From: an uncultured Thermotogae bacterium
GTDB taxonomy: Bacteria; Bipolaricaulota; Bipolaricaulia; UBA7950; UBA9294
Direction of reading: 5' to 3'
Assembly (NCBI GenBank): GCA_964582285.1
Contig: CAZORQ010000003.1
Span: 12,559-76,558, forward strand
Length of the DNA: 64,000 nucleotides
The notes beneath the pieces are model-generated. The model was not told where the DNA came from. It was given only the letters and a program-made list of their open reading frames with translations, and did not search any database. This document shows positions 13,165-56,837 of this stretch, piece after piece. Every line of letters begins with the position of its first letter. Within the stretch, counting starts at the first letter, position 1. The position numbers and the translations under genes are program-made.

Positions 13165-13257
13165 CCTGTACCTCCTTGTCGATCGATCCAACTTCCAGGG
13201 GGATTCTAGCCGATTGAGTGGGTCGGAATCTGTGATCTGGATTACAGAATCGCAGAT

Positions 13258-22797: not shown

Positions 22798-23595
22798 CTA
22801 GTTGCCTGAGCCCTGTTCGAGACTGTCCCTCATCTCGCGGAGGATCTTATCCTTCAGTCTAGAAATCTGGCGTTGGGACAGACCAAGCTCGGCTCCTATT
22901 TCTGATTGACTCTTCTTGTCGTAGAACAAGCCTTCGACGATCTGCTGCTGGATCTCGCTCAATCGCTCGATCGCCACGAGCACCCTCATGCGGACATCGT
23001 GCGGCAGGTCCTCAGAACCTGTCATCAATCTCTCAGCGGTTGGCGCCGACGGGTTGGGATCGGTGGTCCGGCGTTGCTGGTCTATCGAGACGTAGGTCAT
23101 CGTGTCGCGTCCCCTAAGCAAAGCGGTTAACTGGTCGTCGGTGAGTCCGAGATCGGAGGCGAGTTCGGCAAGCGTCGGCGGTCGTCCCTGTTGCTGGAAG
23201 AACGTCTCTTCAGCTTCCTTGATACGGCGGTTCATCGTCTGAACCCACTGAGGAATCCGGATTGTGGAGTGCTTGTCACGGATGTAATGCCGGATTTCTC
23301 CTTGGATCAGATAGCTGGCGTAGGTGCTGAATCGCGTGTTGCGTGCCAGATCGAAGTTGGACGCGGCATTCAGAAGACCGATGTAGCCCGCTTGGATCAG
23401 GTCATCGAGCAACTCACCTGAAATCAGGAACTTGATGGCGATCGATTTCACCAGTCCGATGTTCCGACGAACGATTTCCTCACGCAACTCCGCGGGGTCC
23501 AATCCTAGCGGCTTGTCATCGTCCAAGCAGTTCAGGAGCTCAAGGAGCTCTTCATTCGTCAGTGTGCCAGGGACTACTCGTTCCGCTTTGGGCAT
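22798..23595 (-). CDS. RNA polymerase sigma factor, group 3 (SigB/SigF/SigG-like)
   Basis: Region 2 ..DLIQAGYIGLLNAASNFDLARNTRFSTYASYLIQGEIRHYIRD.., region 3 ..PTLAELASDLGLTDDQL.., region 4.2 HTH ..KSQSEIGAELGLSQRQISRLKDKIL... Confidence 0.85.
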   Translation of the reverse strand: MPKAERVVPGTLTNEELLELLNCLDDDKPLGLDPAELREEIVRRNIGLVKSIAIKFLISGELLDDLIQAGYIGLLNAASNFDLARNTRFSTYASYLIQGEIRHYIRDKHSTIRIPQWVQTMNRRIKEAEETFFQQQGRPPTLAELASDLGLTDDQLTALLRGRDTMTYVSIDQQRRTTDPNPSAPTAERLMTGSEDLPHDVRMRVLVAIERLSEIQQQIVEGLFYDKKSQSEIGAELGLSQRQISRLKDKILREMRDSLEQGSGN

Positions 23596-36573: not shown

Positions 36574-36607
36574 GAAGGGGAGCGTCAGCGTTCCCCTTCT
36601 TGCTTTT
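36574..36607 (+). terminator. Rho-independent terminator after the DUF1015 gene
   Basis: 11-bp stem GAAGGGGAGCG / CGTTCCCCTTC (one G-U pair) with a 4-nt loop, followed by TTGCTTTT. A smaller hairpin ACGGCAC-AAGC-GTGCCGT at 36541-36558 precedes it. Confidence 0.7.
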
Positions 36608-36730
36608 CGGGAGCAGTACATGTGTCCCGGGCACCGGGGACAAACCCACGACCTGTTCCTCGCCCATTTCCCGTTGGGGCGGTCGATTCTCATCTACGCT
36701 TCGAGCGGTGAGATCATGGAGGAGGTCATC

Positions 36731-37912
36731 ATGCGACGGTTATGCGCGAGGATTGCGTTCTGCGCTGTCCTGGTTCTTCTTGTTTGCAGCGGACTTGGAA
36801 TCGCCGACGATGCAGGGTTCTCGGGGTTTGTCGGGCTGGGGATCACGTACACGCCGGTACCTCCGACGTCCTACAATATCGGCGCGGATCTCAAGCTAGC
36901 GTTCGATGTCTCAGGATTCACATTCAGCTCGGAGACAGGATTCGATCTTGCCGGCTTCCAGTCTCAACGCGTGATTCTTGGGATCGATCTCGGAGCCGTC
37001 CGGATCAGAGAGGAGATGCTATTCGACCCAAGTTTCGGTTGGAACGAATTGAATGTCGACCTGGCGATTGCCGGGATCGATATTGGCGTGGACTTCATTC
37101 TGGCGGATATCGGCAGCGTGCAGACGCCGGTCTACAGTATGGGGGCGGTCATTGAGCTCTCGAGCGGGATCGTGTGCGGGTTTTCGATAGCGAGTCTCAC
37201 CGGATTCGGCGCGGTCGATCTGGTCAATATCCTCGAGGGAATCGAGGCGCCGTTCTCGTACGAGCTTCTTCATCTGTTCAATCGACTGGACACGCTATGC
37301 ACGCTGCCTCTGGATCTGGATGTGACGATTGTTCCGGACTTCTACTTCGAGGAGCAGCTTGTCCGATTGGAAGCCGACTTCATGGGGATGATCTCGAGCA
37401 ACACGACATGGTTCGACTCCACGGGGCTCTCACGCATGCTGTTCGAGCTTGGATATCGGTTTGAGGAACCGTCGCTCAGCTTCCTTGCAACCATGGGATT
37501 GGATGGATCCTTCGTGATCACCGATATCGCATTCATCGTGGACCTCCAGATCGATGTGATACGCTTCACGTCTCATACGTGGTTTGAGGAGAACCCGCTT
37601 CCAGCTCCGATTCCAACCGTGTTTGGCGGCCAGGGATTCGCGGTGTCGTTTGAGCTGTGCGGCGTCTTGATCTCCACGGAGACCGGCTTCGACGGGTCGT
37701 TCCTGTTCACACAGCAGCTGATTGCGATCGAGGCGACATTCGATCCGGTGACCTTTAGAAGCCTTACGGAATTCGACGCGAGCGGCTTTGCCGGCCAGTG
37801 CATCTATGCTGATGTCACTTTCTGCGGGGCGAAGCTGTACACGAAAGCGGAGTTCACCTTCTCGGGCATCGAACTCGTCACATTCGGATTCGATTTCTCC
37901 TTCGGTTCATGA
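36731..37912 (+). CDS. Hypothetical secreted beta-rich protein (possible outer-membrane/surface protein)
   Basis: ATG 36731 after GGAGGAGG. Signal peptide MRRLCARIAFCAVLVLLVCSGLGIA. Acidic, rich in aromatic/aliphatic residues, with recurring ..(S/T)ETGFD..F.. segments. Ends ..VTFGFDFSFGS. No family recognised. Confidence 0.6.
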   Translation: MRRLCARIAFCAVLVLLVCSGLGIADDAGFSGFVGLGITYTPVPPTSYNIGADLKLAFDVSGFTFSSETGFDLAGFQSQRVILGIDLGAVRIREEMLFDPSFGWNELNVDLAIAGIDIGVDFILADIGSVQTPVYSMGAVIELSSGIVCGFSIASLTGFGAVDLVNILEGIEAPFSYELLHLFNRLDTLCTLPLDLDVTIVPDFYFEEQLVRLEADFMGMISSNTTWFDSTGLSRMLFELGYRFEEPSLSFLATMGLDGSFVITDIAFIVDLQIDVIRFTSHTWFEENPLPAPIPTVFGGQGFAVSFELCGVLISTETGFDGSFLFTQQLIAIEATFDPVTFRSLTEFDASGFAGQCIYADVTFCGAKLYTKAEFTFSGIELVTFGFDFSFGS

Positions 37913-38574
37913 GCGAACGAGCAGATCTACCAGGGCTGGACGTGGAAGAGCTCCTTCGGCTCCTTGGACAAGAAGGCGAAGACACCGACGGCATACGAGA
38001 GGAGCTTCTTCGGCGGGGAACGCCGATCATTGGAGAGGTCATTGCATCATCGTTTGCCAATACGGGATTCACCAGCGAGGAGCTGTACCGCCCGGGCTAT
38101 CTTGGGCTTCTCAATGCAGTTTACAATTACGATCTCTCTCACGGCAAAGGCTTCCGTGAGTACACGGAAAACCTGATCAAGGGAGAGATCAGGAGCCACA
38201 TTCGCGACCAAGTCCGGCATGTCACGATCCCGGCATGGATGAGCGACCTGAACCAGCAAGTTGAGGTCGCGGAGGCACGGCTTCTACGGGAGACGGGGCA
38301 GCTGCCGAGCCTTGGTCAGCTATCCGACACGGTCAATATCACCGAGGAAGGACTGGCCGAGGTGTTCAAGGCGCGTGAGGCACTCAGCTATGTGTCGCTT
38401 GACGTGAGCAAACGGGAAAACGATCCGGTGCCCGTGATCGACTTATCCAAAATCCGAGCCAAGCGATCCTGCCCCTTCCCCATCGAGTATCGAATCAAGC
38501 TTGCCTCGGCCCTGGAAAGGTTGGCTGAGCTGCAGCAGTACCTCCTTCATAGCCTGTTCCGAGTGGCCGAGTAG
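37909..38574 (+). CDS. Sigma-70-family paralogue (regions 2-4.1) lacking the region 4.2 helix-turn-helix
   Basis: ATGA overlap with the upstream gene. ..GYLGLLNAVYNYDLSHGKGFREYTENLIKGEIRSHIRD.. aligns with the sigma at 22798-23595. Ends ..LERLAELQQYLLHSLFRVAE* exactly where the paralogue continues with its HTH. Confidence 0.7.
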   Translation: MSERADLPGLDVEELLRLLGQEGEDTDGIREELLRRGTPIIGEVIASSFANTGFTSEELYRPGYLGLLNAVYNYDLSHGKGFREYTENLIKGEIRSHIRDQVRHVTIPAWMSDLNQQVEVAEARLLRETGQLPSLGQLSDTVNITEEGLAEVFKAREALSYVSLDVSKRENDPVPVIDLSKIRAKRSCPFPIEYRIKLASALERLAELQQYLLHSLFRVAE

Positions 38575-38721
38575 CCGGACACTTGAGGCCGCATCGACAG
38601 ATGAGACCACGACTTCATTCCATGCTTGTTGTGCAATCGTCGTGATTTCCCCGTGGAGCGACGGTATTCCGCAGCTGCGTCCGCTGCTATAATGGCCGAG
38701 TATCCTGCCGAAGGGGGCGAG

Positions 38722-39375
38722 ATGAAGCGAACGATTATCGGATTGAAGATAAGTCTTCTGGTGGCCGCTCTGGCGGCCGTGGCTGGCTGCGCTCTGTTCA
38801 ATCAGGCGCCGGTGGTGAACTTCACGTGGACACCGTCGGATCCCATGGCACGGTTTGACGTTCAGTTCACGGACTTGTCCACCGATTCCGGCGGCCTGTT
38901 CGGGGGTGGCGGGATCGTGTCGTGGAACTGGGACTTCGGCGACTTTGACACATCCGCTGCTCAGAATCCGAGACACGAATACGAGAAGGGCGGAACCTAC
39001 ACCGTTCGACTGACCGTCACCGATGACGGTGGGGAAACGGCCACACTGACGCGCACGATCACGGTTACGGCGAGCGTCGACGGCCTGTGGACGGGCTCGA
39101 TCACCAACATCTTCTTCGTCCCGATTTCCTTCTCGCTGGATCTCAACCACTCCTCGGCTGGGAACATCAGCGGAACGATGACCATCGGGAACGTGACGCA
39201 GCCTCTGACCGGTGGATCTTACAACCCCATTACGCGAGAGGTTCAGATCAACTGTGCAGGCTTCGATCTCATCCTGCGTGGAGACCTGGACCTGTCGGAG
39301 ACAAGAATGGAAGGGCTCTGGTGGGACGACAACACGGGTCAGGAAGGGGAAAGCTGGAGCGTTACCCTCCTGTAG
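38722..39375 (+). CDS. Lipoprotein with PKD domain and unknown C-terminal domain
   Basis: ATG 38722 after AAGGGGG. Lipobox ..LAAVAGC. PKD signature ..WNWDFGDFDTSAAQNPRHEYEKGGTYTVRLTVTDDGGETAT... Confidence 0.75.
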   Translation: MKRTIIGLKISLLVAALAAVAGCALFNQAPVVNFTWTPSDPMARFDVQFTDLSTDSGGLFGGGGIVSWNWDFGDFDTSAAQNPRHEYEKGGTYTVRLTVTDDGGETATLTRTITVTASVDGLWTGSITNIFFVPISFSLDLNHSSAGNISGTMTIGNVTQPLTGGSYNPITREVQINCAGFDLILRGDLDLSETRMEGLWWDDNTGQEGESWSVTLL

Positions 39376-39392
39376 CCACGATGTAGCTGATG

Positions 39393-39418
39393 GCGGCCGC
39401 GCTTGGCGCGGCCGCTTT
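39393..39418. terminator. GC-rich hairpin terminator between convergent genes
   Basis: GCGGCCGCGC-TTG-GCGCGGCCGC followed by TTT on the plus strand. Confidence 0.5.
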
Positions 39419-39438: not shown

Positions 39439-40488
39439 CTAGCTGGCGGGTTTCGCTGCACCGAACGTGAACGGACAGGCGGCGATGCAATTCGAGCAGG
39501 CGGCCGTGTTCTTTGCCCAGAAATCGTAGCATCGATCGGCATTCACCGCCCAACGCAGGATTCCGGTGTTGTTTGAGGGACAGGCCACGTCGAACGAAGG
39601 ATCCCGTACTGTGCTGATGGCGTCCGCCTCGCAGGCATCGGCACATCGGCGGCAGTCGCGGCATGTCTCGACCAGTCCGAAATCGACCGGCTGGTCGGGT
39701 TCGAGTGGTAGGTCGGTGAAGACCTTGCACAACCGAATGCATGAGCCGTACTCCGGTGTGATCAGAAGGCCGTTTCGGCCCAGCTGCCCCAGTCCGGCAT
39801 CGACGGCTAGCGGAATGCTCAACGCGGTGTCGTTGCCCATCGGGATTGCGTTGTAGCGAAGATTTCGAAGGAACTGCGCCATGCAGGCGATCGCGAACGC
39901 CATCTTCGAGTATCCCACTCCGGTGGTCGCGGCAGACTCATACGTCGGGGAGGTCATGACGCCGTCACGATCCATCGCGATTCCCATGACGATCGCGAAA
40001 CGGTACTCGCGGGGGATCGCAACCGGGTCACCGCTCCGGTCGTGCGAGTAGATCCAACGTTCATCGACCTGGCAGATGCCAACCAGATCCGCCCCGAACA
40101 TCTTGGCGGTCTTCTTGATCTCGGCGCTCATCTCGGCGGGATTGCCCACCGGATGTCGGCCGAGCTGCATCATCGCGGGATCGGCCTGCCCGAGCCGCTT
40201 CCACGAGAAGGCACCGCCGAAGCAGTCGTGAACGGTCCAGGAAGCGAGGACACGTGCGAAATCGAGTCGGGAGTAGCCCGGCGCGCCTTCAGAGATCCGA
40301 GAGGCTGCAGCGCTCCGATACTCCTTCTCGAAGAAGGAAGCTTCACGATCCCAATAGCGGCGCATGAAGACCGTCTGTCGTTCGTCGAACCGTCCATGTC
40401 TCTCTGGGTCGATGGTGTGGTGACTGCTGCCGCTGTCGAGCATTCGCTCCTCCTGTCCATCCAATTTGGCACGCCGTACAGGGCGCAA
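39439..40488 (-). CDS. Reductive-dehalogenase-family (RdhA-like) Fe-S protein, cytoplasmic type
   Basis: ..KKTAKMFGADLVGICQVDERW.., ..PLAVDAGLGQLGRNGLLITPEYGSCIRLCKVFTDLPL.., two cluster motifs CRDCRRCADAC and CSNCIAACP. No twin-arginine signal seen. Start may be ATG 40443. Confidence 0.55.
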   Translation of the reverse strand: MRPVRRAKLDGQEERMLDSGSSHHTIDPERHGRFDERQTVFMRRYWDREASFFEKEYRSAAASRISEGAPGYSRLDFARVLASWTVHDCFGGAFSWKRLGQADPAMMQLGRHPVGNPAEMSAEIKKTAKMFGADLVGICQVDERWIYSHDRSGDPVAIPREYRFAIVMGIAMDRDGVMTSPTYESAATTGVGYSKMAFAIACMAQFLRNLRYNAIPMGNDTALSIPLAVDAGLGQLGRNGLLITPEYGSCIRLCKVFTDLPLEPDQPVDFGLVETCRDCRRCADACEADAISTVRDPSFDVACPSNNTGILRWAVNADRCYDFWAKNTAACSNCIAACPFTFGAAKPAS

Positions 40489-42427: not shown

Positions 42428-43786
42428 TCAGCTTCCATGCGGTGCCCCATTGGCGGATTCGGTCAGGCACTGTTCCGCATGAGCTGCGGCGGCGATCCCC
42501 GATCGAACCGCCCCCTCGATCGTCGACGGCCATCCGGTTGCCGTCCAGTCGCCAGCAAGGTACAGGCCGCGGATCGGTGTCTTGGACGGGGGGCGGAGTT
42601 GGTCCGCCTCCGGCTGCGGGATGAACGTTGCCTGCGGGTGGCGAACGACGAGCGTTCGCTTGAGTCCAGCCTCTCGTGCGGAGGGGAGAAGCTTGCTGAG
42701 TTCGGCGAGCAGTAATTGCACGATGACGGCGTTCGGGTGCTCTAGCCACTCATCGGCAGCGCTTTGAGAGAAGACGAGATGGGTCACCCCATCTCGCAAA
42801 GGCTCTCTGTGGAGCTGCGTCACATCGAAGAGGGCCTGCACGGGTGAGTTGACCGCGACCACGAATGCATGATCGAGCACTGGCCGATCGAACCAAACGT
42901 GAAGGTTGACAATCGGTGCCCAGCGAATCTGGGCAGCTCGCGCAATCAGGCGGTCGAGTGCCGCGTCCTCCTTCTCGCGCACGAGGCGGGCGAACTCGGC
43001 TGGAGGAACTGCACAGACGGCAGCTGTACACTCGATGGTTTCTCCGGTCACAAGCTGAACCCCGCGGATGCAACCGTCCTCCACGATCAACTGACGCACG
43101 GGTGCAGAAAGGCGAATCGCTCCGCCTCTCTGCTCAATGTAGTCCCGGGCCGCCTCGAAGATCTGCGAAAGCGCCACAGTGAAGAAGCCCATGTTCGCAC
43201 CATCAGCGTGAAAGAATGCGTCACGGAACACCTTGCGTGCAGCGTGCAGGCCGACAGCACTCGTCGGAGCATTCAGCGTGGCGATGGAGATCGGATCCCA
43301 CAGACAGCGAATTGTTGCCTCGGTTTGCCCATGGTTGGCGAGCCAATTACCGAAGGGCGGATCCTTCTCTCCGCCATGCAACGACAGCGTCAGACCGGCT
43401 TGAATCGTGCGAAGCCGATCCGGGAACGAGAGTACCCGATAGCGAAGAAGCGCCGGTGCGAGGTGAAGTATCCCGGGGAGAAGAGACGAGCGGAGAACTG
43501 CCGTGGCATCGGGTGATGCGATCGGGATAGCAAGGCGCGACTGGAATTGCACGGTATCGGGCATACCGATCCGAAGAAGGAAGCCGGTTGCAGCGGTGCA
43601 GCACTGCATCAGCACATGATGCCCGTAGTCGACTGTCTCACCTGCGTCGGCAAGCTGGAACGATGCAGCGCGACCGCCGAGCCGCGGTGCGCGTTCGAGC
43701 AACAACGGGCGACGGCCTTCGCCGGAGAGCCGACAGGCGGCGGCGGCTCCCGAAAACCCGCCACCGATGACGACGACTCCACTCAT
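42428..43786 (-). CDS. hpnE: Hydroxysqualene dehydroxylase HpnE (FAD amine-oxidase fold)
   Basis: MSGVVVIGGGFSGAAAACRL..LLLERAPRLGGRA... Position after hpnC-hpnD. ..LYLAGDWT... Confidence 0.8.
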   Translation of the reverse strand: MSGVVVIGGGFSGAAAACRLSGEGRRPLLLERAPRLGGRAASFQLADAGETVDYGHHVLMQCCTAATGFLLRIGMPDTVQFQSRLAIPIASPDATAVLRSSLLPGILHLAPALLRYRVLSFPDRLRTIQAGLTLSLHGGEKDPPFGNWLANHGQTEATIRCLWDPISIATLNAPTSAVGLHAARKVFRDAFFHADGANMGFFTVALSQIFEAARDYIEQRGGAIRLSAPVRQLIVEDGCIRGVQLVTGETIECTAAVCAVPPAEFARLVREKEDAALDRLIARAAQIRWAPIVNLHVWFDRPVLDHAFVVAVNSPVQALFDVTQLHREPLRDGVTHLVFSQSAADEWLEHPNAVIVQLLLAELSKLLPSAREAGLKRTLVVRHPQATFIPQPEADQLRPPSKTPIRGLYLAGDWTATGWPSTIEGAVRSGIAAAAHAEQCLTESANGAPHGS

Positions 43787-44790
43787 GTGCGTCTCCAGGA
43801 TGAAGACAGCAAGAGCCAGAGCTTCTCACGTGTGGGGAGCGACACGCGACCGCCGAATACGTCGCAATCGCCGGCGATGATTCTAGAGAGGATCCGACTG
43901 TAGATCTCGGACAGCAGCCAAGGACACGCTCGGCTTCGGCGCGGAAGTAGTGCAAGGAGACGGCGGCCCCGGTCGAGCAAGTCGGTTGCTCGGGCGGCAT
44001 GCGCGGCGAGAAGATCGCGCAGTCCGTCGCTCATCCGCCGTTCTTCCATCTGTGTCCTCTCCACACCGTGGCCCGCGAACTCCTCTTCCGGAAGGTAGAT
44101 CCGTCCCAAGGAGAGATCTTCATCGACATCGCGAAGGATGTTGACGTACTGCATCCCGAGACCAAGGTCGATGGCTGCCTCACGCATCGCATTGGTAGGC
44201 GTTGCGGCGTTGGTGAGGATCGGAAGCGTGGCCAGCCCGACGGCGGAGGCGACGTGGTAGCAGTAGGTCCGAAGCTCATCGTAGGTTTGGATATGAGCCG
44301 GGGTTAGGTCCATCTCGACGCCGCTGATGACATCGCGCAAGTCCTCCTCGCGCACGCCGAATCGATGGATCGCATCAGCGAGTGCGAGATCGCGTGGTGT
44401 GGTTGGCTTGCCGCGCCCCGCGCACGCCAGGCGCGCTCGCATTGCCTTCAACTCCGCCCGGCGTCTCTCCAGGTCTGCCGAATCACGACTGCCCGCACTA
44501 GAACCAACATCCTGTACGTCCCCCACCGAGAGAACGGCTGTGCTGTTCTCTCCCCCGAATGTCGTATCGAGAGGATTCGGGCGAACGGCTGTGCTGTTCT
44601 CTCCCGCGGACGAAGGTACTTCTGTGCCTTCGTCCGCGATATCGTCAGCTTCGTGGCAGAACGCATACAGGGCATACACGGCTCGGCGTTGATCCCGGGG
44701 AAGACTGAGAAACGCGAAGTAGAAATTCCGGGCGGCCCGGCGTGCGGTGCGCTCGGACACGCGATAGGAGCGCTCTAGATCTGTCGCCAT
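43783..44790 (-). CDS. hpnD: Presqualene diphosphate synthase HpnD, with a ~45-aa low-complexity insertion
   Basis: ..RAARNFYFAFLSLPRDQRRAVYALYAFCHEADDIADE.., ..YCYHVASAVG.., ..NILRDVDEDLSLGRIYLP... The insertion ..GENSTAVRPNPLDTTFGGENSTAVLSVGDVQDVG.. comes after the first Asp-rich motif. Confidence 0.8.
   Translation of the reverse strand: MATDLERSYRVSERTARRAARNFYFAFLSLPRDQRRAVYALYAFCHEADDIADEGTEVPSSAGENSTAVRPNPLDTTFGGENSTAVLSVGDVQDVGSSAGSRDSADLERRRAELKAMRARLACAGRGKPTTPRDLALADAIHRFGVREEDLRDVISGVEMDLTPAHIQTYDELRTYCYHVASAVGLATLPILTNAATPTNAMREAAIDLGLGMQYVNILRDVDEDLSLGRIYLPEEEFAGHGVERTQMEERRMSDGLRDLLAAHAARATDLLDRGRRLLALLPRRSRACPWLLSEIYSRILSRIIAGDCDVFGGRVSLPTREKLWLLLSSSWRRT
44532..44605. repeat. 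Diverged 51-bp in-frame tandem duplication inside hpnD
   Basis: GAACGGCTGTGCTGTTCTCTCCC occurs at 44532-44554 and 44583-44605. Copy 1 is embedded in an 8-bp-arm palindrome GAGAGAAC-N9-GTTCTCTC. Confidence 0.85.
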
Positions 44791-45674
44791 CGTTTCGAGG
44801 AGAGCGCATAGAGCGCAAGGCCGACCTTCTCGGCGCCGGACAACGACGGCCGTTGGGAGAGCGTGTCGTAGCCCTGCCGTTCGATCTTCCTGAGGATGGC
44901 AAGGCCGCCAAGGGAGAACAGCGAGAGGTCGACTCGGAGACGACCTACCACCCGGTCGAGCAGCGGGAGACCGGCACGGAAGTAGGAGCGGGTCCGGTCG
45001 ACCTGGAAGCGCATCAGATCCTTCAGAGCTGGTGATGCGCGATCCTCGCGCAGCTGCGAACGCGCGAGTCCGTACTCCACCATCTCATCCGCAGGTAGAT
45101 ATACGCGACCAATGGCGGCGTCCCGCTTCACATCCTGCCAGAAGTTTGCGAGTTGGAGGGCCGTGCAGGTAGCGTCGGAGAGAGCGAAACGCTGTTCATC
45201 ACGGTGGCCATTGATCATCAAGACGAGGCGACCGACCGGATTCGCAGAGTGTGCGCAGTAGCGAAGTAGCTCGTCAAATGTGGGGAACGTGTCCGTTCGT
45301 TGGTCGATCCGGTTTGCCTCGATCAGCAGGGCGAACGGCTCGCGCGGAAGATCGAATTGGACGATCGTCTGCTGAAGTGCTACAAGCACAGGATGACGTG
45401 GCTGTGCCGTAAATGCGGCATGGAGCTCCTCCTCAAATCGATCGAGAAGTGCCAATCGGTCGCCGGGGGCCTCGTCGCCGATGTCATCCACGGTACGGCA
45501 GTACGCGTACAGCGCGGCAAGATGACGCCGCATCGCACGTGAGGAAAGCCACGACAAGACGGTGAAATTCTCGTAATGAGAGGTGGCCAGTGCCATGCAG
45601 AACCGATGGGCTTCCTCGATGGAAGCGGGTACCGGAGGCGGGCGGAGCAGAGCGTCCACGTGCGCTGCTACCAT
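44775..45674 (-). CDS. hpnC: Squalene synthase HpnC
   Basis: ..ALATSHYENFTV.., ..LYAYCRTVDDIGDE.., ..YCAHSANPVGRL.., ..NFWQDVKRDAAIGRVYLP... Confidence 0.82.
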   Translation of the reverse strand: MVAAHVDALLRPPPVPASIEEAHRFCMALATSHYENFTVLSWLSSRAMRRHLAALYAYCRTVDDIGDEAPGDRLALLDRFEEELHAAFTAQPRHPVLVALQQTIVQFDLPREPFALLIEANRIDQRTDTFPTFDELLRYCAHSANPVGRLVLMINGHRDEQRFALSDATCTALQLANFWQDVKRDAAIGRVYLPADEMVEYGLARSQLREDRASPALKDLMRFQVDRTRSYFRAGLPLLDRVVGRLRVDLSLFSLGGLAILRKIERQGYDTLSQRPSLSGAEKVGLALYALSSKRWRQI

Positions 45675-46141
45675 CCGTGAGCCTGGATGATGACCTCGCG
45701 AGGCCGAGGACGATCGAGTTCAATCAGGAAGATCCGCTGCCAGCGCCCCAATAGCACAGCACCGTCAGAGATCGGAATCGTCTCGCTGGCGGATAAGAGG
45801 AGGTGTTGGCAGTGTGAGTGACCGTTCGGACACTCATCCTCCGTCATGTTCGCTGTCCGGATGGTGAAGTCATTGTGCCGGTACTCTCCATCCTGTGGGG
45901 CGATCTGTTCGAGGAACTGAGCCATGTCTTCAAGCAAGAGCGGCTCATTCTCGTTGATCTTGATCGCCGCGGTCGTGTGCCGTGAGAAGACAGTCACCGC
46001 TCCCTCGCGGATTCCGGATTCCTCGACGGCGTCGGCAACGTGATCCGTGATGTCGAAGAACTCAGGTGCACAAGATGCTTCATGCCGAATCACGGACCGG
46101 TGGAGCTTCATCGCTACGTGATCTTCCATCGTTGTTCGCAT
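45668..46141 (-). CDS. yjbQ: YjbQ/UPF0047 family protein (secondary thiamine-phosphate synthase-like)
   Basis: ..FFDITDHV.., ..VFSRHTTAAIKINENEP.., ..NGHSHCQHLLLSASETIPI..G..LGRWQRIFLIELD... Confidence 0.75.
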   Translation of the reverse strand: MRTTMEDHVAMKLHRSVIRHEASCAPEFFDITDHVADAVEESGIREGAVTVFSRHTTAAIKINENEPLLLEDMAQFLEQIAPQDGEYRHNDFTIRTANMTEDECPNGHSHCQHLLLSASETIPISDGAVLLGRWQRIFLIELDRPRPREVIIQAHGW

Positions 46142-46162
46142 GTCTCTCTCCTACCCCCGGGT

Positions 46163-47041
46163 CTAGTGGTCGGTTGTCTTTACGGCCTCTTCGTGAGCCT
46201 CTGCGTCTTCCAGCCGTCGAACGACGGCATTGATGACGTTGTCCGGCGTCGATGCCCCAGCGGTGACGCCGAACCGGCTTGTGTCGGCCAGCCAGCTGCT
46301 GTCGATTTCGTCAGCCGATTCAATGTGATACGTGCGGATTCCCGCCTCGCGGCAGGTCTCGGCCAGCTTGCGCGTATTGGCCGATGTGCGGCTTCCCACA
46401 ACGATCAGCGCCTCGACCGAACGTGCCAACTCCTTTGCCGCCTGGTAGCGGCGCCCCGTCTCCGGACAGGTGGTATCGATAATCCGTATCTCCTGTGCTG
46501 TTCCGGTGAACCGCTTGACGAGTGTTTGGGCGAACTCGGCAAACCGTGTCGGATTCTTCGTGGTCTGCGCAATTAACGCGATCCCGCGGTCGCCGATCGG
46601 TATCTCGATATCGGGAGACTGCGTTGCCATGCCGCGGCCGCGCGTCCAGGAAAGAATCCCACGTACTTCGGGATGTTCAGCCTCCCCGTACAAGATGACT
46701 GTGAAGCCTTCCTCGACGAGCTGCGCGGCGGTTTCTTGCGCGCGGCGGACGATCGGACAGGTCGTGTCGACGAGTCGAAGACCGCGGCGCTCGATTTCGG
46801 AGAACACCTCTTCGCCGGCGCCGTGAGCGGTGATCGCCACGGTGCCGTTCTCGGGGACCTCATCAAGGTGGGTAGCCATCTGAGCACCCTTTTCAGCCAA
46901 AGCATCGACGACATGGGCGTTGTGAACGATTGCGCCGAGTGTGTGGAGCGGGCCTCGCTCTGCCAGCTCGGTCTCGATCATCTGAACGGCACGCCGAACC
47001 CCGCCGCAGAAGCCCAGGATACTTGCCTTGTCAATGCTCAT
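46163..47041 (-). CDS. ispH: 4-hydroxy-3-methylbut-2-enyl diphosphate reductase IspH
   Basis: Start moved to ATG 47041 (ATGA overlap with shc). ..GFCGGVRRAV.., ..GAIVHNAHVV.., ..TCPIVRRAQ.., ..DTTCPET... Confidence 0.88.
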   Translation of the reverse strand: MSIDKASILGFCGGVRRAVQMIETELAERGPLHTLGAIVHNAHVVDALAEKGAQMATHLDEVPENGTVAITAHGAGEEVFSEIERRGLRLVDTTCPIVRRAQETAAQLVEEGFTVILYGEAEHPEVRGILSWTRGRGMATQSPDIEIPIGDRGIALIAQTTKNPTRFAEFAQTLVKRFTGTAQEIRIIDTTCPETGRRYQAAKELARSVEALIVVGSRTSANTRKLAETCREAGIRTYHIESADEIDSSWLADTSRFGVTAGASTPDNVINAVVRRLEDAEAHEEAVKTTDH

Positions 47042-48966
47042 TCCAGCTTCTCCAATCCGCGCCTGTAGCGTCCGAGTGCCATGAGCGGGAACACGTCCCG
47101 ATAGATGTGGTAGCGGATCATGAAATCGGTTGGAAATCCGGTCCCGGTGAACTGCGGCTCGTCCCATCCTCCAGTCTTGCGCTGCGTTGCGATGAGGTAG
47201 TCGATGCCTCTGCACGTAGACGGGTGTCCTAGCTGCTCGGCGGCGAGAAGGCCGAGCAAAGCCCACGCTGTCTGCGAAGCCGTAGATGGGCCGCGACCTC
47301 GGCTTTCTGCATCGTAGTATCCCTCGATTCGCTCTCCCCATCCGCCGTCATCGTTTTGATGTTCGACCAGCCAGTTCACTGCACGACGCACGTACGGTGA
47401 GTCCATTCTCTCGCCGACGGCCGCCAGGCCGGGAAGCACGCTGCCGATGCCATACGTGAGATTCGTGCCCCATCGTCCGAACCAGGCGCCATCAGAATCC
47501 TGTTCGCGTTTCAGATAGGTGACGGCTCGGTCGATGGTGCGCTGGCCGATCCGGTATCCGCGTCGACCGAGGCATTCGATGATGTGACCGGTGACGTCAG
47601 CAGAGGGGGGGTCGATCATCTCGCCGAAGTCGGCGAACGGAATGTCTCGAGTCCATGTCTGGGTGTTGTTCCGATCGAACGCGCCCCAACCGCCGTTTCG
47701 GCTCTGCATTGCGATCAGCCAGTCTTCAGCGCGCGCGATCGCATGCTTTGCTCTCTTGGGATTGGCCTTTGCGTTCAGCAACGCCATGATCACCACCGCC
47801 GTGTCGTCGGTGTCGGGGTACTTGTCGTTGGCGAACTCAAATGCCCATCCTCCAGGCGGGGCGGCGCAGCGAGCCTGCCAGTCGCCACCGGTGAAGATCT
47901 GCTCCGCAAGCAACCACTCTGCCGCCCGAGTGACCGCTGGGTGGTCCGAAGGGAGGCCGGCGTCTTCGAGGGCCATCAGGGCAAGACCCGTGTCCCAGAC
48001 GGGAGACAGACACGACTGGAGGTGGAACGTCTCGTCGTCCTCGACGGCGAAACCTTGCGGCCCGTAGAAACCGGCGAAACCGTTGGCGAGCGCGCCTCCG
48101 GAATCGATGTTGTCTCCAAGTAGATACAGCGCTATCAGCGAATACACCCAGGGTGGCTGGATCCCCCCCCATGACCCATCTGCCTCCTGTCGATCGAGGA
48201 TCCATTGCTTGGCACGACGGATGGCGCCGGCGCGGAACGGCTTCCATCGCATCCGATCGTACACGTGCAAGAGGCGATCGGCGATGAGGAAACACCGAGC
48301 TCTGGCACTCCGTCGCGTTACGGGAACTGCGAGATCTGCGTTCTCCCGGCCGCGAGCGAACAGCTCATCGATTTGCTGCTCACGCCGAAGCGGAACGACG
48401 GGCTTGTACGCCATGACAATGGCCAGCGGGACGATCGTCTGTCGTGCCCAGCAGCCAAACGAGTAGATGCTCATCGGGAACCACGACGGCAGGGCTGTGA
48501 ATTCGACGGGGAGGATAGGCAGCCCGCGCCAGTCCCACTCGCCGAGCATCGCGAACCAGATCTTGGTGAACACGCGGACTCGCTCGACGCCCCCTTGGGA
48601 CAGGATGTAGTCGCGTGCCTTCATCATCTCGGGGGCATCGGGCGAGATGCCGATCATCTTGAGTGCAGCGTACGCTTCGATCGATGTTGACAGCTCGGGT
48701 GGCCCATCGTACCAGTTGCCCCATGTCCCATCGTCACGCTGCTGCGAGAGAAGATATCTGCCGGCTTTGCGGGCCTCGGCTTCGTCGGGAATACCGAGAA
48801 TGTGGCGAAGGAAGATATGCTCGGCAGTGATCGTGACGTTGGATTCCAGCTCAGCCCACCAGTACCCGGACTCGTATTGAAGCGACAGGAGATGATCCGT
48901 CGCTGTGCCAATCGAGGCATCGATGTGGCTCATTGCAGCTGAAGGTTGCGTCACCGAGCTACGCAT
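47038..48966 (-). CDS. shc: Squalene-hopene cyclase
   Basis: ..LQYESGYWWAELESNVTITAEHIF.., catalytic ..YPDTDDTAVV.., repeated QW-type motifs (..DGSWGG.., ..NGGWGAF.., ..DGGWGE.., ..TGGW..). Confidence 0.92.
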   Translation of the reverse strand: MRSSVTQPSAAMSHIDASIGTATDHLLSLQYESGYWWAELESNVTITAEHIFLRHILGIPDEAEARKAGRYLLSQQRDDGTWGNWYDGPPELSTSIEAYAALKMIGISPDAPEMMKARDYILSQGGVERVRVFTKIWFAMLGEWDWRGLPILPVEFTALPSWFPMSIYSFGCWARQTIVPLAIVMAYKPVVPLRREQQIDELFARGRENADLAVPVTRRSARARCFLIADRLLHVYDRMRWKPFRAGAIRRAKQWILDRQEADGSWGGIQPPWVYSLIALYLLGDNIDSGGALANGFAGFYGPQGFAVEDDETFHLQSCLSPVWDTGLALMALEDAGLPSDHPAVTRAAEWLLAEQIFTGGDWQARCAAPPGGWAFEFANDKYPDTDDTAVVIMALLNAKANPKRAKHAIARAEDWLIAMQSRNGGWGAFDRNNTQTWTRDIPFADFGEMIDPPSADVTGHIIECLGRRGYRIGQRTIDRAVTYLKREQDSDGAWFGRWGTNLTYGIGSVLPGLAAVGERMDSPYVRRAVNWLVEHQNDDGGWGERIEGYYDAESRGRGPSTASQTAWALLGLLAAEQLGHPSTCRGIDYLIATQRKTGGWDEPQFTGTGFPTDFMIRYHIYRDVFPLMALGRYRRGLEKLE

Positions 48967-49603
48967 TGGACCTCCCTAGCAGCGCAGCAATTGCTTTGTC
49001 GATTGCCTCACCGAGTGCCCGCCCCGAAGCGATTGCGTCGTGAGTCACACGTGCTGCAAGGATGGGGTGGGAGACGGCAGAGAGCCAAAACGGACGATTG
49101 GCGGCAAATGGCAAGTCCTCCTCGACTGGGTCGAGTACGATCCTCAGCGTCAGAAACGGGATCTCGCGATCCGCTGCCCAGCGGGCGAGTGGCCCGCTCT
49201 CCATGTCAGTCACCAGCGCTCCACGGGCAGCAAGTGCACGCTTCTCGCTCGAGGAGAGAACGTGGTCGACGGACTCGCACAGACCGAGATGCACATCGCC
49301 GGATCCGCTGTTCAGTGTTCGGTGCACTTGTTCGAGAATTTCGGGGGAAACCCGGATCTCCTCATCATTGTGGCGGATGGCCGTCGCAAGGAACAGGGTC
49401 CCCTTCTCAATGTCTGGGTGGATACCTCCGCAGAACCCTGTTGAGAGGAGGAGGGATACGTTGGATGACGCACTGCCCAGCTCATCCATTGTCTGGCGTG
49501 CTTGCTCGCCGATCGCCGTATGGACAACACGAACTCCCGGCTGTCGGGAGATCCATCGCGATTCGACTGAGAAGCACGCCGTGATGAGAATCATCGACCC
49601 CAT
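48959..49603 (-). CDS. hpnG: Hopanoid-associated phosphorylase/nucleosidase HpnG (PNP/UDP-1 fold)
   Basis: ..LLLSTGFCGG.., ..ALVTDMESGPLA... Position between hpnH and shc. Confidence 0.65.
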   Translation of the reverse strand: MGSMILITACFSVESRWISRQPGVRVVHTAIGEQARQTMDELGSASSNVSLLLSTGFCGGIHPDIEKGTLFLATAIRHNDEEIRVSPEILEQVHRTLNSGSGDVHLGLCESVDHVLSSSEKRALAARGALVTDMESGPLARWAADREIPFLTLRIVLDPVEEDLPFAANRPFWLSAVSHPILAARVTHDAIASGRALGEAIDKAIAALLGRSNA

Positions 49604-50595
49604 GCCCCCCGAGCCAGTCGCGCCAGCGCCTTCGGTTTCCGAAGTGCATCGAGGATGCTGGCCCCCTCAAATGCCGAATGCATCATGCAGTTCGCGCATC
49701 GCGCATCGCGTCCCGGCCCGTAGCGTTCCCACACATCATCGGTGAACAACTCGTCGATGTCGTGAACGTGCTGATCAGCGATGGCATAACAGGGGAGCCT
49801 CCATCCGAGGACTGTGTATGTGGCGGTGGTCCAGGCGGCGCAATCGTAGTCGCGCTCCCCGCGGAGGAAATCGAGATAGAGTGGGTTGTTGTAGAACGGG
49901 AAGCCCGTGGAGGGATCGAGGACCTGCCGGAACACGGAGATCGACTCCTGGCGACGAAGAAACAGATCCTGATCGGGAGCATCCTCATAGGAGTATCCCG
50001 GCGAAACCATCAAACCCTCCACCCCAAGATCGACCAACGTGGCGAACAGGGTGTGAAGGTCGCCGATATCGGAGCCGTGAAATAGCGTGGTGTTGGTGCA
50101 GACGCGATGCCCACGGGCAACCGCCTCGCGGATTGCATCGATGGCCGTGGCATAGGTCCCGGGTCGCTCCGTGATCTTGTCGTGGGCTGATTCCGTTCCG
50201 TCGAGATGGACGACGAACGCCAGGCGCACCGATGGGGTAAACAGGTCGAGCTTCTCCCTCAGCAGTAGCCCGTTGGTGCACAGGTAGATGAAGCGGCGAT
50301 CCTCGGTAATCGCTCGAGCGATCTCGCCGATCTGATTGTGAAGAAGTGGCTCTCCGCCGGAAAGCGAGACGATTGGCGCGTCGGACGCCTGCACGGCCGC
50401 CAGGCATTCGTCGACGGTCAATCGTTGATCCATAACGTCACGGTATTCACGAACACGACCGCATCCGGTGCACGCAAGATTACATGCCTCGAGCGGCTCG
50501 AGCATCGTGACGAGAGGGAAACGCCCGCCCCGCCATGCGGTGCGCCCGATCAGGTGCCGAGCGACGGAAAGGTCAAGTTGAAACGGACGGCTCAT
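49591..50595 (-). CDS. hpnH: Adenosyl-hopene transferase HpnH (radical SAM)
   Basis: ..LEPLEACNLACTGCGRVREY.., ..SLSGGEPLL.., ..LCTNGLLL... C-terminal ..CANCMMHS... Confidence 0.82.
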   Translation of the reverse strand: MSRPFQLDLSVARHLIGRTAWRGGRFPLVTMLEPLEACNLACTGCGRVREYRDVMDQRLTVDECLAAVQASDAPIVSLSGGEPLLHNQIGEIARAITEDRRFIYLCTNGLLLREKLDLFTPSVRLAFVVHLDGTESAHDKITERPGTYATAIDAIREAVARGHRVCTNTTLFHGSDIGDLHTLFATLVDLGVEGLMVSPGYSYEDAPDQDLFLRRQESISVFRQVLDPSTGFPFYNNPLYLDFLRGERDYDCAAWTTATYTVLGWRLPCYAIADQHVHDIDELFTDDVWERYGPGRDARCANCMMHSAFEGASILDALRKPKALARLARGAWGR

Positions 50596-51581
50596 GTCTC
50601 CCTCCTCGCGAGGAACTCAATCAGTTCCTGCATCTGAGACTGCCCGTTCGCGGAGAACGGGAGTCCCCTGAGTGCATCGATCGCTTTGCCTAGGTTGTCG
50701 TGGACCATCGCCTCGCACCGAGTGCGCACGTCAAGTTCATCGAGACGCTCCACAATCCAGCGGACATCGCTCTCACGCATTCCTGTGTCCGACAGTGCAT
50801 CCCCGCTGTAGAGCGTAGCTACGCGGGCATCCTCTTGCTGGAGAAGCAGAAGCACGGGAAGCGTCTTCTTTCGTCTCCGGATATCGGATCCGGTGGCTTT
50901 CCCGAGCATGTCTTCGCTGCCCCAAATGCCGAGGAGATCATCCTTGATCTGGAACGCACGTCCCACAGCCCGCCCCAGCTCGACAAGTGTCGAGCGCACC
51001 TTCTCGTCAGCTCCGGCAGCCAAGCCCCCCAGTTCGAACGCGCAACGGAGGAGCGCTCCGGTCTTCCGATCGATCATCTCCAGATACTCGTCCACAGAGA
51101 CGTTGCGCTGTTCGAACGCCACATCGAGGCACTGCCCTTCGATCATCTCTCGGGTTGCATCGAGGAGGCAGATCGCTTCCGCAGCCGAGGATGCGAGGAC
51201 TTCTGAGATTGCGAGATTATGCATAAGATCGCCGGCGTTGATGGCTTGCTCGATGCCGCAGACTGTCCACACGGCCGGTCGGCCTCGGCGGACGTGGTCA
51301 CGATCTTGAATGTCGTCGTGAATGAGAGAGAAGCTGTGGATCAGCTCAAGAGCGACGGCGCCGGGGAGGGCGTCCTCTATGCCCGCTCCAAGCTGCTCGG
51401 CGACGAACAGGACAACGCTTGGGCGGAGGAACTTCCCGGTTGCGCATGCAGGCATGCCATTCTCATCCTCCAGCCCTATGTGGTATCGAAGAAGTGAGGC
51501 CATCGCCCCATCTCCGTGCAGGGCAGCGCGAACCCCTCCTTCAATCTGCGATCGATACGTCTCAAGAATCGCCTGTTTCAC
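50592..51581 (-). CDS. Polyprenyl diphosphate synthase family protein (FPP/GGPP synthase-like)
   Basis: First Asp-rich motif ..SLIHDDIQDRDHVRRGRP... The second reads ..FQIKDDLLGIWG.. (DDxxG rather than DDxxD). Confidence 0.82.
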   Translation of the reverse strand: MKQAILETYRSQIEGGVRAALHGDGAMASLLRYHIGLEDENGMPACATGKFLRPSVVLFVAEQLGAGIEDALPGAVALELIHSFSLIHDDIQDRDHVRRGRPAVWTVCGIEQAINAGDLMHNLAISEVLASSAAEAICLLDATREMIEGQCLDVAFEQRNVSVDEYLEMIDRKTGALLRCAFELGGLAAGADEKVRSTLVELGRAVGRAFQIKDDLLGIWGSEDMLGKATGSDIRRRKKTLPVLLLLQQEDARVATLYSGDALSDTGMRESDVRWIVERLDELDVRTRCEAMVHDNLGKAIDALRGLPFSANGQSQMQELIEFLARRET

Positions 51582-55632: not shown

Positions 55633-56709
55633 ATGCAAAACGGCGATGCGATGCAACGGACGATGGAGCTGATCCGTGTGGCTGTTGCTGCGGAGGGATT
55701 TGAGGAACTCTCGAATGATGTCCTACCGCGCTTGGCGGGTTTGACCGCCGCACGATCGGCCTTCCTCTACGTGTCGGACCTCCGGCTTCACGCCCCCCAT
55801 TTCGGGAACTACGATCTTCCGTCGAGCGAGGCGTCCGTGTTGGAGCAACGATGCTCAACGTGGCTCGAGAACGCTCAGGATGCGGAGACCTCTGCAGGCT
55901 CGATGCGTATTCCTATCGAGGATGGGACTGCGTATGCTGTCCATCCGATGCAGGCGGACGGGCGAGTCATTGGAGTGGTCGGTGTGTCGGAAGACGGAAT
56001 GGCCCATCCATCTTCCGGTGGTGGGGTTTGGCCCGGACTGCTTGCGACGCTTGGTCGGGTCGCAGATCACCTTGCAGCTCATGTAAGCGCCGAACGCAAG
56101 CTCCACCACCTTAACACGTACCTGACGGTGAGTAGCATGCTTGCGAAGTCGGTCGATCTTGCGGAACTGCTGGAGATCGCCCTCTACTGCTGTATGGAGA
56201 CGTCATCTGCAGACGCGGCTTCGATCCTCCTGCTGGATGAGACGAAGGAGAACTTCCAGTTCTATCGGGTTGAAGGAGCGGCAAAGCCTCTCCTTGGCGG
56301 CTCAACATTCCCGGCGACGGAAGGCGTTGCCGGACGTGTTCTGGAGAGCCGCGAAGCCGAGATCGTTAATGATGTAGAGAGCGATCCACGTTTCTATGAG
56401 CAGATTGATCTGAAGACCGGATTTCGCACCCATAACTTGATCGCTGTGCCCCTCATTGCCGGCGACGAGAGCGTCGGCGTTCTCGAGGTACTGAATCGGG
56501 CGGACGGCGGGCTGTTTACTGCCGACGAGCGGCTGATTCTCGTTTCGGTGGCGGACGAGATTGCGTTCGCGATTCGGAACGCTACGATCTTCGACTACGT
56601 AGTGAACACGTATTGCAAGCGGCGCCAAGGTCAGAACTCATGCAAGGGATGCGAACGTCCTCTTGGATCTTGGACGCCTTGCATGCGGTATCGGGAGTAC
56701 CTGCCGTAA
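55633..56709 (+). CDS. Tandem GAF-domain protein with C-terminal four-Cys tail
   Basis: The second GAF is clear (..ASILLLDE..FPATEGVAGRVLESREAEIVNDVESDPRF..LIAVPLIAGDESVGVLEVLN..). Tail CKRRQGQNSCKGCERPLGSWTPC. Start is ATG 55633 (after AAGGAGGAGG), 55618 or 55651. Confidence 0.75.
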   Translation: MQNGDAMQRTMELIRVAVAAEGFEELSNDVLPRLAGLTAARSAFLYVSDLRLHAPHFGNYDLPSSEASVLEQRCSTWLENAQDAETSAGSMRIPIEDGTAYAVHPMQADGRVIGVVGVSEDGMAHPSSGGGVWPGLLATLGRVADHLAAHVSAERKLHHLNTYLTVSSMLAKSVDLAELLEIALYCCMETSSADAASILLLDETKENFQFYRVEGAAKPLLGGSTFPATEGVAGRVLESREAEIVNDVESDPRFYEQIDLKTGFRTHNLIAVPLIAGDESVGVLEVLNRADGGLFTADERLILVSVADEIAFAIRNATIFDYVVNTYCKRRQGQNSCKGCERPLGSWTPCMRYREYLP

Positions 56710-56837
56710 GTGTGACGGCGCAAACGGATACGGCTGGGAACTCCGGGATCCCAAGGTATCCTGGAGTTCCCGGCAGGACGTTCACGCTGTTTGGAGTGGT
56801 TGAGTTTCGGTGCAATCGTCCGATCAAGGGAGAGTTG

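Follow-up and report, generated by a model that had tools for sequence, protein, structure and literature searches.

The 64,000-nt stretch of DNA analyzed here (the window), from an uncultured Thermotogae bacterium (GenBank assembly GCA_964582285.1, contig CAZORQ010000003.1) belonging to the Candidatus Bipolaricaulota (Acetothermia/OP1), contains at 36616-38574 what is best explained as a self-contained two-gene operon specific to the Bipolaricaulota. Gene 1 is predicted to encode a porin-like outer-membrane barrel of a new family, and gene 2, coupled to it, encodes a sigma factor paralogue that ends before region 4.2; the pair is preceded by a distinctive promoter/operator sequence. This revises a first-pass annotation of the same DNA, in which a third gene was included in the operon. 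The reading that we favor, with a probability of about 45%, is that the gene 2 protein would be an RNA polymerase initiation factor that does not need a -35 element and is made in proportion to translation of the barrel.

A pattern and tblastn scan, with one genome taken per species, identified 45 loci that encode a gene 1 relative (individual loci are designated L001 and so on), and gene 2 directly follows gene 1 in 43 of these. The named relatives of both genes are almost all from Candidatus Bipolaricaulota (Acetothermia), and many other metagenome-assembled genomes that carry them are labeled 'uncultured Thermotogae'. The block upstream, aminotransferase-serA-DUF1015, is usually present. 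The truncation of the sigma paralogue and its coupled ATG, not preceded by a Shine-Dalgarno motif, recur in ~43 species-level genomes. A deeply divergent locus, L046 (GCA_046483725.1, 4437-6011), encodes a barrel of 305 aa that is ~90 residues shorter than gene 1 and 23% identical to it, and, 13 nt past the barrel, a 214-aa sigma-like protein that is 39% identical to gene 2 and has the same truncation point. L046 represents the P0252 lineage, the only lineage of distant gene 1 paralogues with a sigma-like neighbor; no such neighbor is present beside the distant paralogues P0266, P0269 and P0332.

By descent, the closest relatives of gene 2 are the group 3 sigma factors (SigB/SigF/SigG, TIGR02980), to which the protein is homologous over regions 2.1-4.1 and with which it shares a predicted sigma fold. 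It aligns with positions 4-191 of the 227 positions of the TIGR02980 profile (E 1e-26), with 93.8 bits against a curated cut-off of 234, and obtains 23.3 bits with PF04542 (Sigma70_r2, cut-off 24) and 16.4 bits with PF04539 (Sigma70_r3, cut-off 25.3), both of which have precomputed matches in many of the orthologues. The best match to a solved structure is to sigma F in the SpoIIAB-sigma F complex (1l0o_C, E 1.7e-15), and the alignment includes sigma F region 3. The window also encodes a full-length paralogue, 22798-23595(-), of the SigB/F/G type with regions 2, 3 and 4, located between genes for a short-chain dehydrogenase and a glutaredoxin-domain protein and not flanked by partner-switching genes of the rsbV/rsbW or spoIIA type. 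Gene 2 is 34% identical to this paralogue, the alignment stops at residue 224 of the 265 in the paralogue, and Sigma70_r4 is recognized in the paralogue only, in agreement with the earlier description of gene 2 as a cytoplasmic, sigma-like protein that is truncated relative to it. As the curated cut-offs are missed and region 4 is absent, gene 2 is more appropriately considered a relative than a member of the group 3 sigma factors. It differs from them in lacking the region 4.2 helix-turn-helix and in its setting, downstream of the gene for a predicted outer-membrane protein and not within an operon of the rsbV-rsbW or spoIIA type.

The position of the truncation is constant. AlphaFold2 returns a sigma fold for gene 2 with a predicted local distance difference test (pLDDT) value of 88.9, in which the final element is one long helix, residues 192-217. 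The 120 database homologues listed are all 215-230 aa in length with only the region 2 and region 3 Pfam domains, and the 42 orthologues from the loci (215-237 aa) end 0-19 residues past the region 4.1 helix. Kept in these 42 orthologues are motifs in region 2.2 (GYLGLLNAV), regions 2.3-2.4 (F..YA.NLIKGEIR.HIR), region 3.0 (P.WM..LNRQ), the 3.2 finger (YVSLD..R.NDP) and the region 4.1 helix (RI..A.ALE.L..LQ....LF), after which the protein stops; in region 2.2, R-P is found at the position of the canonical sigma Q-x. Region 4 (PF04545/PF08281) is absent from gene 2 of the window and from the 120 listed homologues. A phmmer search with region 4 of the paralogue, against six-frame stretches of at least 40 aa from the window and the 45 loci, found no detached region 4, and its only matches were to that paralogue and to gene 2, in the region 4.1 helix. 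No frameshifted or downstream-encoded region 4 is present in any of these reading frames. Pairwise ratios of nonsynonymous to synonymous substitution rates (dN/dS) for gene 2 are 0.09-0.24, which argues that gene 2 is a maintained sigma paralogue without region 4 and not a decaying gene. An origin from a defense system or phage was considered and rejected, with generic sigma matches the only matches obtained (in PADLOC, MzaA with 30.7 bits; among the PHROGs, phrog_351 over part of its length).

Gene 2 starts within an ATGA (37909-37912) that overlaps the gene 1 stop codon. In 42 of 43 loci, the distance from the stop codon of gene 1 to an in-frame gene 2 ATG is -4 to +9 nt, with the junctions having the form ATGA, TAATG or TAGnnATG. 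In L038, the remaining locus, the scripted call chose an upstream ATG, and an ATG at +6 was read from the sequence. Outside these 43 loci, the nearest gene 2 start in L011 is GTG, not ATG. No Shine-Dalgarno-like motif is seen before the gene 2 ATG in 41 of the 43 loci; unlike gene 2, genes 1 and 3 have strong Shine-Dalgarno sites. As gene 2 has no ribosome-binding site of its own and its start overlaps or abuts the gene 1 stop codon, it has the geometry on which termination-reinitiation depends, and would be translated in this way, at a low and fixed fraction of gene 1 translation. The tight translational coupling of an exported protein to a sigma-like factor, remarked on in the first-pass annotation, is supported.

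Gene 1 had been described as a 393-aa acidic protein with a signal peptide, recurring (S/T)ETGFD segments and a ..FGFDFSFGS terminus, probably an outer-membrane or surface β protein and not placeable in any family; the sequence features and the lack of a family are upheld. A signal peptide (MRRLCARIAFCAVLVLLVCSGLGIA/DD) was read from the sequence of the signal-peptide-like N-terminus, and a hydrophobic N-terminus, as expected of a Sec signal peptide, is present in every gene 1 homologue. The mature protein (~40 kDa, isoelectric point 4.05) contains 48 Asp plus Glu versus 12 Lys plus Arg residues and 11% Phe, and the two (S/T)ETGFD segments are at residues 67 and 316. There is no match in Pfam, NCBIfam, PHROG or PADLOC, which leaves gene 1 outside any described porin or outer-membrane protein sequence family, and a profile search of 1.84 billion representative proteins identified 89 relatives, with all of the named clusters from Bipolaricaulota. 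Residues 42-118 and 291-369 exhibit weak internal similarity (29% identity over 80 aa, pairwise E 4e-4) that covers the (S/T)ETGFD segments and hints at growth of the barrel by internal duplication, and the 305-aa barrel of L046 lacks the middle section of gene 1.

The AlphaFold2 model of gene 1 (pLDDT 77.7, predicted template modeling score 0.68, from an alignment of 28 sequences) has a signal-peptide helix followed by 22 antiparallel strands, an even number, connected by short turns, with pLDDT values of ~90 in the C-terminal half and 50-75 in the N-terminal half. Most of the strands have alternating hydrophobicity. A Foldseek comparison of this model with the PDB returned 188 matches with E <= 0.001, of which the best 50 are all membrane β-barrels, nearly all bacterial outer-membrane proteins, with probability 1.00 and template modeling scores (TM-scores) of 0.3-0.5. 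The best match is to the Rhodopseudomonas blastica porin (E 3e-8), and others include the FimD/PapC ushers, LptD, OmpF/OmpU and FrpB. Many members of the gene 1 family end in ..V.FGF.L.F (..FGFxLxF), with the terminal aromatic residue and alternating hydrophobic residues of a C-terminal β-signal, and the clade that includes the window has two additional residues (..FSFGS). The most conserved stretch of the protein, with invariant TGFGA..L, G..AP and FEE.L.R, lies in and around a highly conserved internal insert at about residues 157-212, with helices modeled at 164-188, that recalls the constriction loop of porins.

Gene 1 is therefore predicted to define a previously undescribed family of porin-like outer-membrane barrels with ~22 strands. 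An outer-membrane location is plausible because Bipolaricaulota have a toga-like outer membrane; they stain Gram-negative, and tethering of the Omp-α/Omp-β type has been reported, as has a hexagonal surface lattice of 6.25 nm in the cultured strain J31. With porins, gene 1 shares the signal peptide, an acidic, predicted antiparallel barrel, an aromatic end resembling a β-signal and a helical loop that recalls L3, but the TM-scores are only 0.3-0.5, the ~22 strands predicted compare with 16-18 in porins, and there is no common sequence family. In this phylum, Omp-β has been recognized by adjacency to a gene encoding an SLH-domain protein (Omp-α), near csaB, whereas the neighbors of gene 1 are DUF1015 and gene 2, and no SLH-domain gene adjoins it.

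A set of blocks, conforming to the consensus (G/T)(A/T)ACA-N2-TGTCC-N10-G(G/T)GAC(A/G)AA-N22-(A/G)TTTCC-N23-TAnnCT, is shared by the window and every one of the 44 related loci that extend this far (L001-L044), at about 110-30 nt upstream of gene 1. The blocks are essentially indel-free over ~90 bp and the sequence between the blocks is unconserved, with column conservation assessed over 23 diverse loci. The distance from TAnnCT to the ATG is 30-49 nt; the spacing upstream is rigid. If TACGCT is the -10 element, transcription would start at about 36707 and TTTCC would be positioned at about -40 to -36. TAnnCT has the T, A and last T by which a -10 element is defined, but at the normal 17-bp spacing upstream of it no -35 element is conserved. 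The inverted repeat has its sole exact match in the window at 36616-36644, and a looser core, TGTCC-N10-nGAC(A/G)A, is present as a single copy in the window and in each of 43 loci; 534 kb of DNA yielded one further match. Gene 1 is parted from DUF1015 by a 3-kb ABC-transporter insertion in four loci, and there the promoter region stays with gene 1. As the spacing is rigid, recognition most likely occurs at the DNA level, and the region presumably constitutes a promoter dedicated to this operon, preceded by an operator to which a dimeric factor would bind.

Other interpretations of this region were evaluated and discarded. An RNA leader or riboswitch is inconsistent with the rigid spacing and with the RNAalifold result (-1.4 kcal/mol, four invariant pairs and no compensatory change), and there is no Rfam match in the region upstream of gene 1, even at E <= 10. 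GACA and GACAAA do not constitute a -35/-10 pair followed by a long leader, as GACAAA lacks the invariant final T of a -10 element and the length varies only past TAnnCT. TTTCC is not a SigB/F-type GTTT -35 element, being 23 bp from the -10-like hexamer and with no GGGTAT following. The combination TTTCC-N23-TAnnCT is expected 0.11 times per window by chance, and a second exact match, at 3083-3116(-), antisense within a + strand gene, is probably such a chance occurrence. Only the GGACAAAC part of the upstream element is recognizable in L046. An extra block, ..TAGCACAATGyG..TTCAAGTCAAGTGCC.., is located 30-70 nt upstream of TGTCC in L026, L027, L030, L032, L034, L035, L038, L040 and L044, a clade in which DUF1015 is not the immediate neighbor.

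With regard to the boundaries of the unit, the strong hairpin and T-run reported to close the DUF1015 gene are as described. The hairpin (36574-36599; ΔG -28.8 kcal/mol, z = -5.0) has an 11-bp stem with 7 GC pairs and a 4-nt loop, is followed by TTGCTTTTCG and was also picked up by a terminator scan, and there are comparable hairpins in many of the relatives that have DUF1015 upstream. The three-gene operon proposed for 36731-39375 is, in contrast, not sustained. Gene 3 does encode a lipoprotein with a VAGC lipobox and a PKD domain (PF18911, E 6e-17), as stated, but is found only in L001-L005 and L007, with a partial match in L016, and at distances that vary. Because gene 3 is limited in this way to the closest relatives, the conserved unit is the pair and not the trio, and gene 3 is, by this distribution, a clade-specific neighbor. 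The claim of an autonomous unit therefore stands for genes 1 and 2, which are conserved together, under purifying selection and with their own promoter/operator, and falls for the three genes together. A TG(C/G)TATAAT precedes gene 3 in the window and L001-L004, all five of the genomes in which gene 3 adjoins gene 2, and the remainder of the intergenic region cannot be aligned among these genomes. Gene 3 thus appears to have its own extended -10 promoter of the housekeeping type, unlike the promoter of gene 1, and TG(C/G)TATAAT provides an example of a housekeeping-type promoter in this clade.

No terminator-like structure is present between genes 2 and 3 (z = -0.3). The GC hairpin beyond gene 3, thought to close the operon, is real as a stem (11 bp; z = -2.4 and -4.6 for the + and - strands, respectively), but a terminator role is not confirmed; it failed to pass the terminator scan and is followed by just UUU, and it may serve as a bidirectional stop. 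In other clades, gene 2 is followed by a CPBP/Rce1-like membrane protease, by unrelated signal-anchored or secreted proteins, or by nothing conserved. The protease gene (PF02517, E 4e-15) overlaps or abuts the gene 2 stop codon (-6 to +22 nt) in L022, L032, L035, L038, L040 and L044, a layout that loosely recalls a sigma gene followed by that of a membrane regulator. The features of the unit and its surroundings are listed in Table 1.

Table 1. Positions in the window of the gene 1-gene 2 unit, its predicted control elements and the adjoining features
Feature	Position	Strand	Remarks
Intrinsic terminator of upstream DUF1015 gene	36574..36607	+	5′ boundary of unit; hairpin plus U-rich tail
Operator-like inverted repeats GTACA-N2-TGTCC-N10-GGACAAA	36616..36644	+	Fixed spacing
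GTACA	36616-36620	+	
TGTCC	36623-36627	+	
GGACAAA	36638-36644	+	
TTTCC block	36667..36671	+	22 nt past GGACAAA, 23 nt before -10-like hexamer; near-invariant columns
-10-like hexamer TACGCT (family TAnnCT)	36695..36700	+	T1, A2 and T6 invariant or at least 90% conserved
Shine-Dalgarno GGAGGAGG of gene 1	36718..36725	+	Strong; read from sequence; (A/G)GGAGG kept in all loci
Gene 1, outer-membrane barrel (predicted)	36731..37912	+	393 aa
Gene 2, truncated sigma paralogue	37909..38574	+	221 aa
Extended -10 promoter TGCTATAAT of gene 3 (putative)	38685..38693	+	Outside unit
Gene 3, PKD lipoprotein	38722..39375	+	217 aa; outside conserved unit
GC hairpin between convergent gene 3 and reductive dehalogenase (RDH)-like gene	39393..39418	undefined	No U-tract

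In the mechanism that we favor, the dedicated promoter, with TAnnCT and no conserved -35 element, would drive the operon, and a dimeric DNA-binding protein would occupy the GACA/TGTCC/GGACAAA/TTTCC sites. Gene 1, with its strong ribosome-binding site, would yield a Sec-exported porin-like barrel of the toga-type outer membrane, and ribosomes finishing gene 1 would reinitiate on gene 2 to give a product that is a small, fixed fraction of barrel synthesis. The gene 2 protein retains regions 2.2-2.4 and 3.0 and the 3.2 finger, with which a sigma factor binds core polymerase and recognizes and melts the -10 element, and lacks the region 4.2 helix-turn-helix, the -35 reader and β-flap clamp. Its most plausible targets would be the operon itself and a small number of envelope genes, with a factor bound upstream in place of the -35 contact, so that transcription would be tied to the rate of outer-membrane protein production. 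Conservation of the core-binding, -10-reading and finger regions, together with the absence of a -35 element from the operon's own promoter, is consistent with this mechanism. Control of transcription by the unit, the wider proposal of the first-pass annotation, is an inference.

Several observations weigh against it. Gene 2 of the window falls below the curated cut-offs of Sigma70_r2, Sigma70_r3 and TIGR02980, and the R-P substitution in region 2.2 could alter core binding. Region 4 also anchors a sigma factor to the β-flap, and a sigma without it might bind core poorly or unproductively. The gene 1 promoter does not have the conserved TG of an extended -10 element, on which sigma-70 truncated before region 4.2 relies, so that participation of another factor would have to be assumed. 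Neither the window nor ~0.5 Mb of related loci contains a further copy of the promoter architecture, so no regulon emerges. In the L039 lineage, no gene 2 adjoins gene 1, and the barrel model of the N-terminal half of gene 1 is only moderately confident. It is more doubtful that gene 2 would represent a natural class of cellular sigma factors without domain 4 and independent of -35 recognition, slaved to translation of an abundant barrel by termination-reinitiation; if so, a co-factor acting in place of the domain 4/-35 contact would bind at the TGTCC-N10-GGACAAA-N22-TTTCC array.

Were the gene 2 protein a sigma decoy, it would occupy core polymerase unproductively, or soak up an anti-sigma factor of the paralogue, and so provide negative feedback or a switch on the paralogue regulon. 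We consider this rather unlikely. In favor of such a role, a complete SigB/F/G-type sigma with 34% identity is encoded in the same genome, gene 2 keeps domains 2 and 3 without the -35 reader and the flap-binding part, and its coupled translation without a Shine-Dalgarno motif would result in a dose proportional to gene 1 output. The best solved match, 1l0o, is moreover a complex of sigma F with the anti-sigma factor SpoIIAB, which binds mainly to domain 3 of sigma F. There is, however, no anti-sigma (HATPase_c_2) or STAS gene beside either sigma gene in the window, the strong conservation of regions 2.3-2.4 and of the 3.2 finger would be needless in a pure decoy, and an operon promoter without a -35 element fits an active sigma without region 4. 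A lower probability is assigned to a split sigma, in which gene 2 would provide domains 2 and 3, and a small region-4-like protein encoded elsewhere in the genome would read the -35 element. A two-subunit sigma controlled by a membrane protein does exist in B. subtilis, gene 2 ends exactly at the region 4.1/4.2 boundary in every lineage, and the TTTCC block could be the target of the partner. Against this, phmmer found no region-4-like open reading frame in the window or the 45 loci (the remainder of these genomes being outside the search), the genes that follow gene 2 differ between clades, and TTTCC is 23 bp, rather than 16-19 bp, from the -10-like hexamer.

The layout in the window had been likened in the first-pass annotation to a cell-surface signaling unit, with an outer-membrane transducer, a sigma factor and a periplasmic regulator. 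The three proteins do occur in that order, the neighbors of gene 2 are all envelope proteins, and in one clade a CPBP/Rce1-like protease is encoded at the gene 2 stop codon. A three-gene module of this kind is nonetheless very improbable. The trio is not conserved together in relatives, a condition that the first-pass annotation itself had set for refuting the module, gene 3 being mostly absent, at variable distance and with its own TGnTATAAT promoter. Gene 1 has no TonB-dependent receptor, plug or signaling domain, gene 2 is of the group 3 and not the extracytoplasmic function (ECF) type and has no region 4, and there is no FecR-like anti-sigma factor, in accord with the caveat already given that none of the three proteins resembles FecA, FecI or FecR. 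It is scarcely credible that there is no functional link, with gene 2 a decaying pseudogene or its position accidental. Such decay had been named as grounds for abandoning the proposal, and gene 2 is truncated relative to the paralogue and scores below the curated family cut-offs, but the low dN/dS values, near-constant length (215-237 aa), retention of motifs in ~43 species and in the 39%-identical deep lineage, conserved stop/start geometry and confident AlphaFold2 model all argue otherwise.

By their likely mode of action, the systems closest to gene 2 are the phage T4 protein gp55 and truncated sigma-70. T4 gp55, a sigma that naturally lacks region 4, depends on gp33 and the gp45 clamp, and a form of E. 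coli sigma-70 that ends ahead of region 4.2 can still initiate transcription at extended -10 promoters. Both bind core and recognize the -10 element without a -35 reader, as proposed for gene 2, and the gene 1 promoter is likewise without a conserved -35 element. Gene 2 differs in being a phylum-wide cellular gene that keeps domain 3 and the 3.2 finger, in that no gp33-like or clamp co-factor has been identified for it, and in that its own promoter has no conserved TG. SigO-RsoA of B. subtilis is a two-subunit sigma with a link to the envelope and under the control of a membrane protein, and in this system, as in gene 2, the sigma functions are split or incomplete on one polypeptide; gene 2 is, however, coupled to a barrel gene, and there is no gene for a partner with the missing domain near gene 2 in 45 genomes. 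The likeness to FecA-FecR-FecI and to the sigma E response to the C-termini of outer-membrane proteins is conceptual only, in that the status of outer-membrane proteins is linked to an alternative sigma. The gene 1-gene 2 unit has no TonB-dependent transducer, ECF sigma or anti-sigma factor; gene 1 (393 aa) has no plug domain, or Pfam or NCBIfam match, to identify it as a FecA-type transducer, and the link would be co-transcription with coupled translation, not a proteolytic or conformational relay.

Region 4 is regarded as a standard part of sigma-70-family proteins; it reads the -35 element, anchors the protein to the β-flap and is where activators and anti-sigma factors usually act. To our knowledge, the sigmas known to lack it are phage proteins or laboratory truncations, and a survey of the literature, incomplete in coverage and so not proof, turned up no description of a cellular sigma that naturally lacks region 4. 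Gene 2, under strong purifying selection across a phylum, would be a natural test case for the minimum needed for promoter recognition in Bacteria, and for what can stand in for the -35 contact. If gene 2 does represent a class of cellular sigma factors without domain 4, there would be a feed-forward or feedback link in Bipolaricaulota between outer-membrane protein production and RNA polymerase specificity, established without an anti-sigma factor and without signaling across the envelope, and the fixed coupling to a new barrel family suggests a previously unreported tie of envelope biogenesis to transcription. The phylum is deep-branching, has a toga-like envelope and has only recently been cultured. 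Gene 1 is currently annotated as 'hypothetical protein' everywhere and gene 2 is mislabeled as 'sigma-B factor'; both now have usable descriptions, together with a precise promoter/operator sequence that can be tested.

The remainder of the window is ordinary chromosome, with genes for an ABC transporter, lipoate metabolism, HypF and serine-pathway-like enzymes followed by DUF1015, and also those of an RDH-like Fe-S protein, an AlkZ-like glycosylase and a hopanoid cluster. The Fe-S protein, 39439-40488(-), passes the reductive dehalogenase model TIGR02486 (189 bits versus a cut-off of 160), has a weak match to QueG and no obvious twin-arginine translocation signal or membrane anchor, and is syntenic with the gene 1-gene 2 unit in close relatives. 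The hopanoid biosynthesis cluster, 42428-51581(-), encodes an HpnE-like amine oxidase, two squalene/phytoene synthase homologues, IspH/LytB, a squalene-hopene cyclase, a radical-SAM protein with DUF3463 (HpnH-like) and a polyprenyl synthetase. There are also three large proteins of complex domain structure: an 800-aa surface protein with VWA, RTX and PKD/cadherin-like domains, 10789-13191(-), a 1418-aa STAND-like protein with a nucleotide cyclase domain, AAA_16 and TPR repeats, 56613-60869(+), and a 788-aa protein that combines NosD/β-helix and PKD domains, 60917-63283(-).

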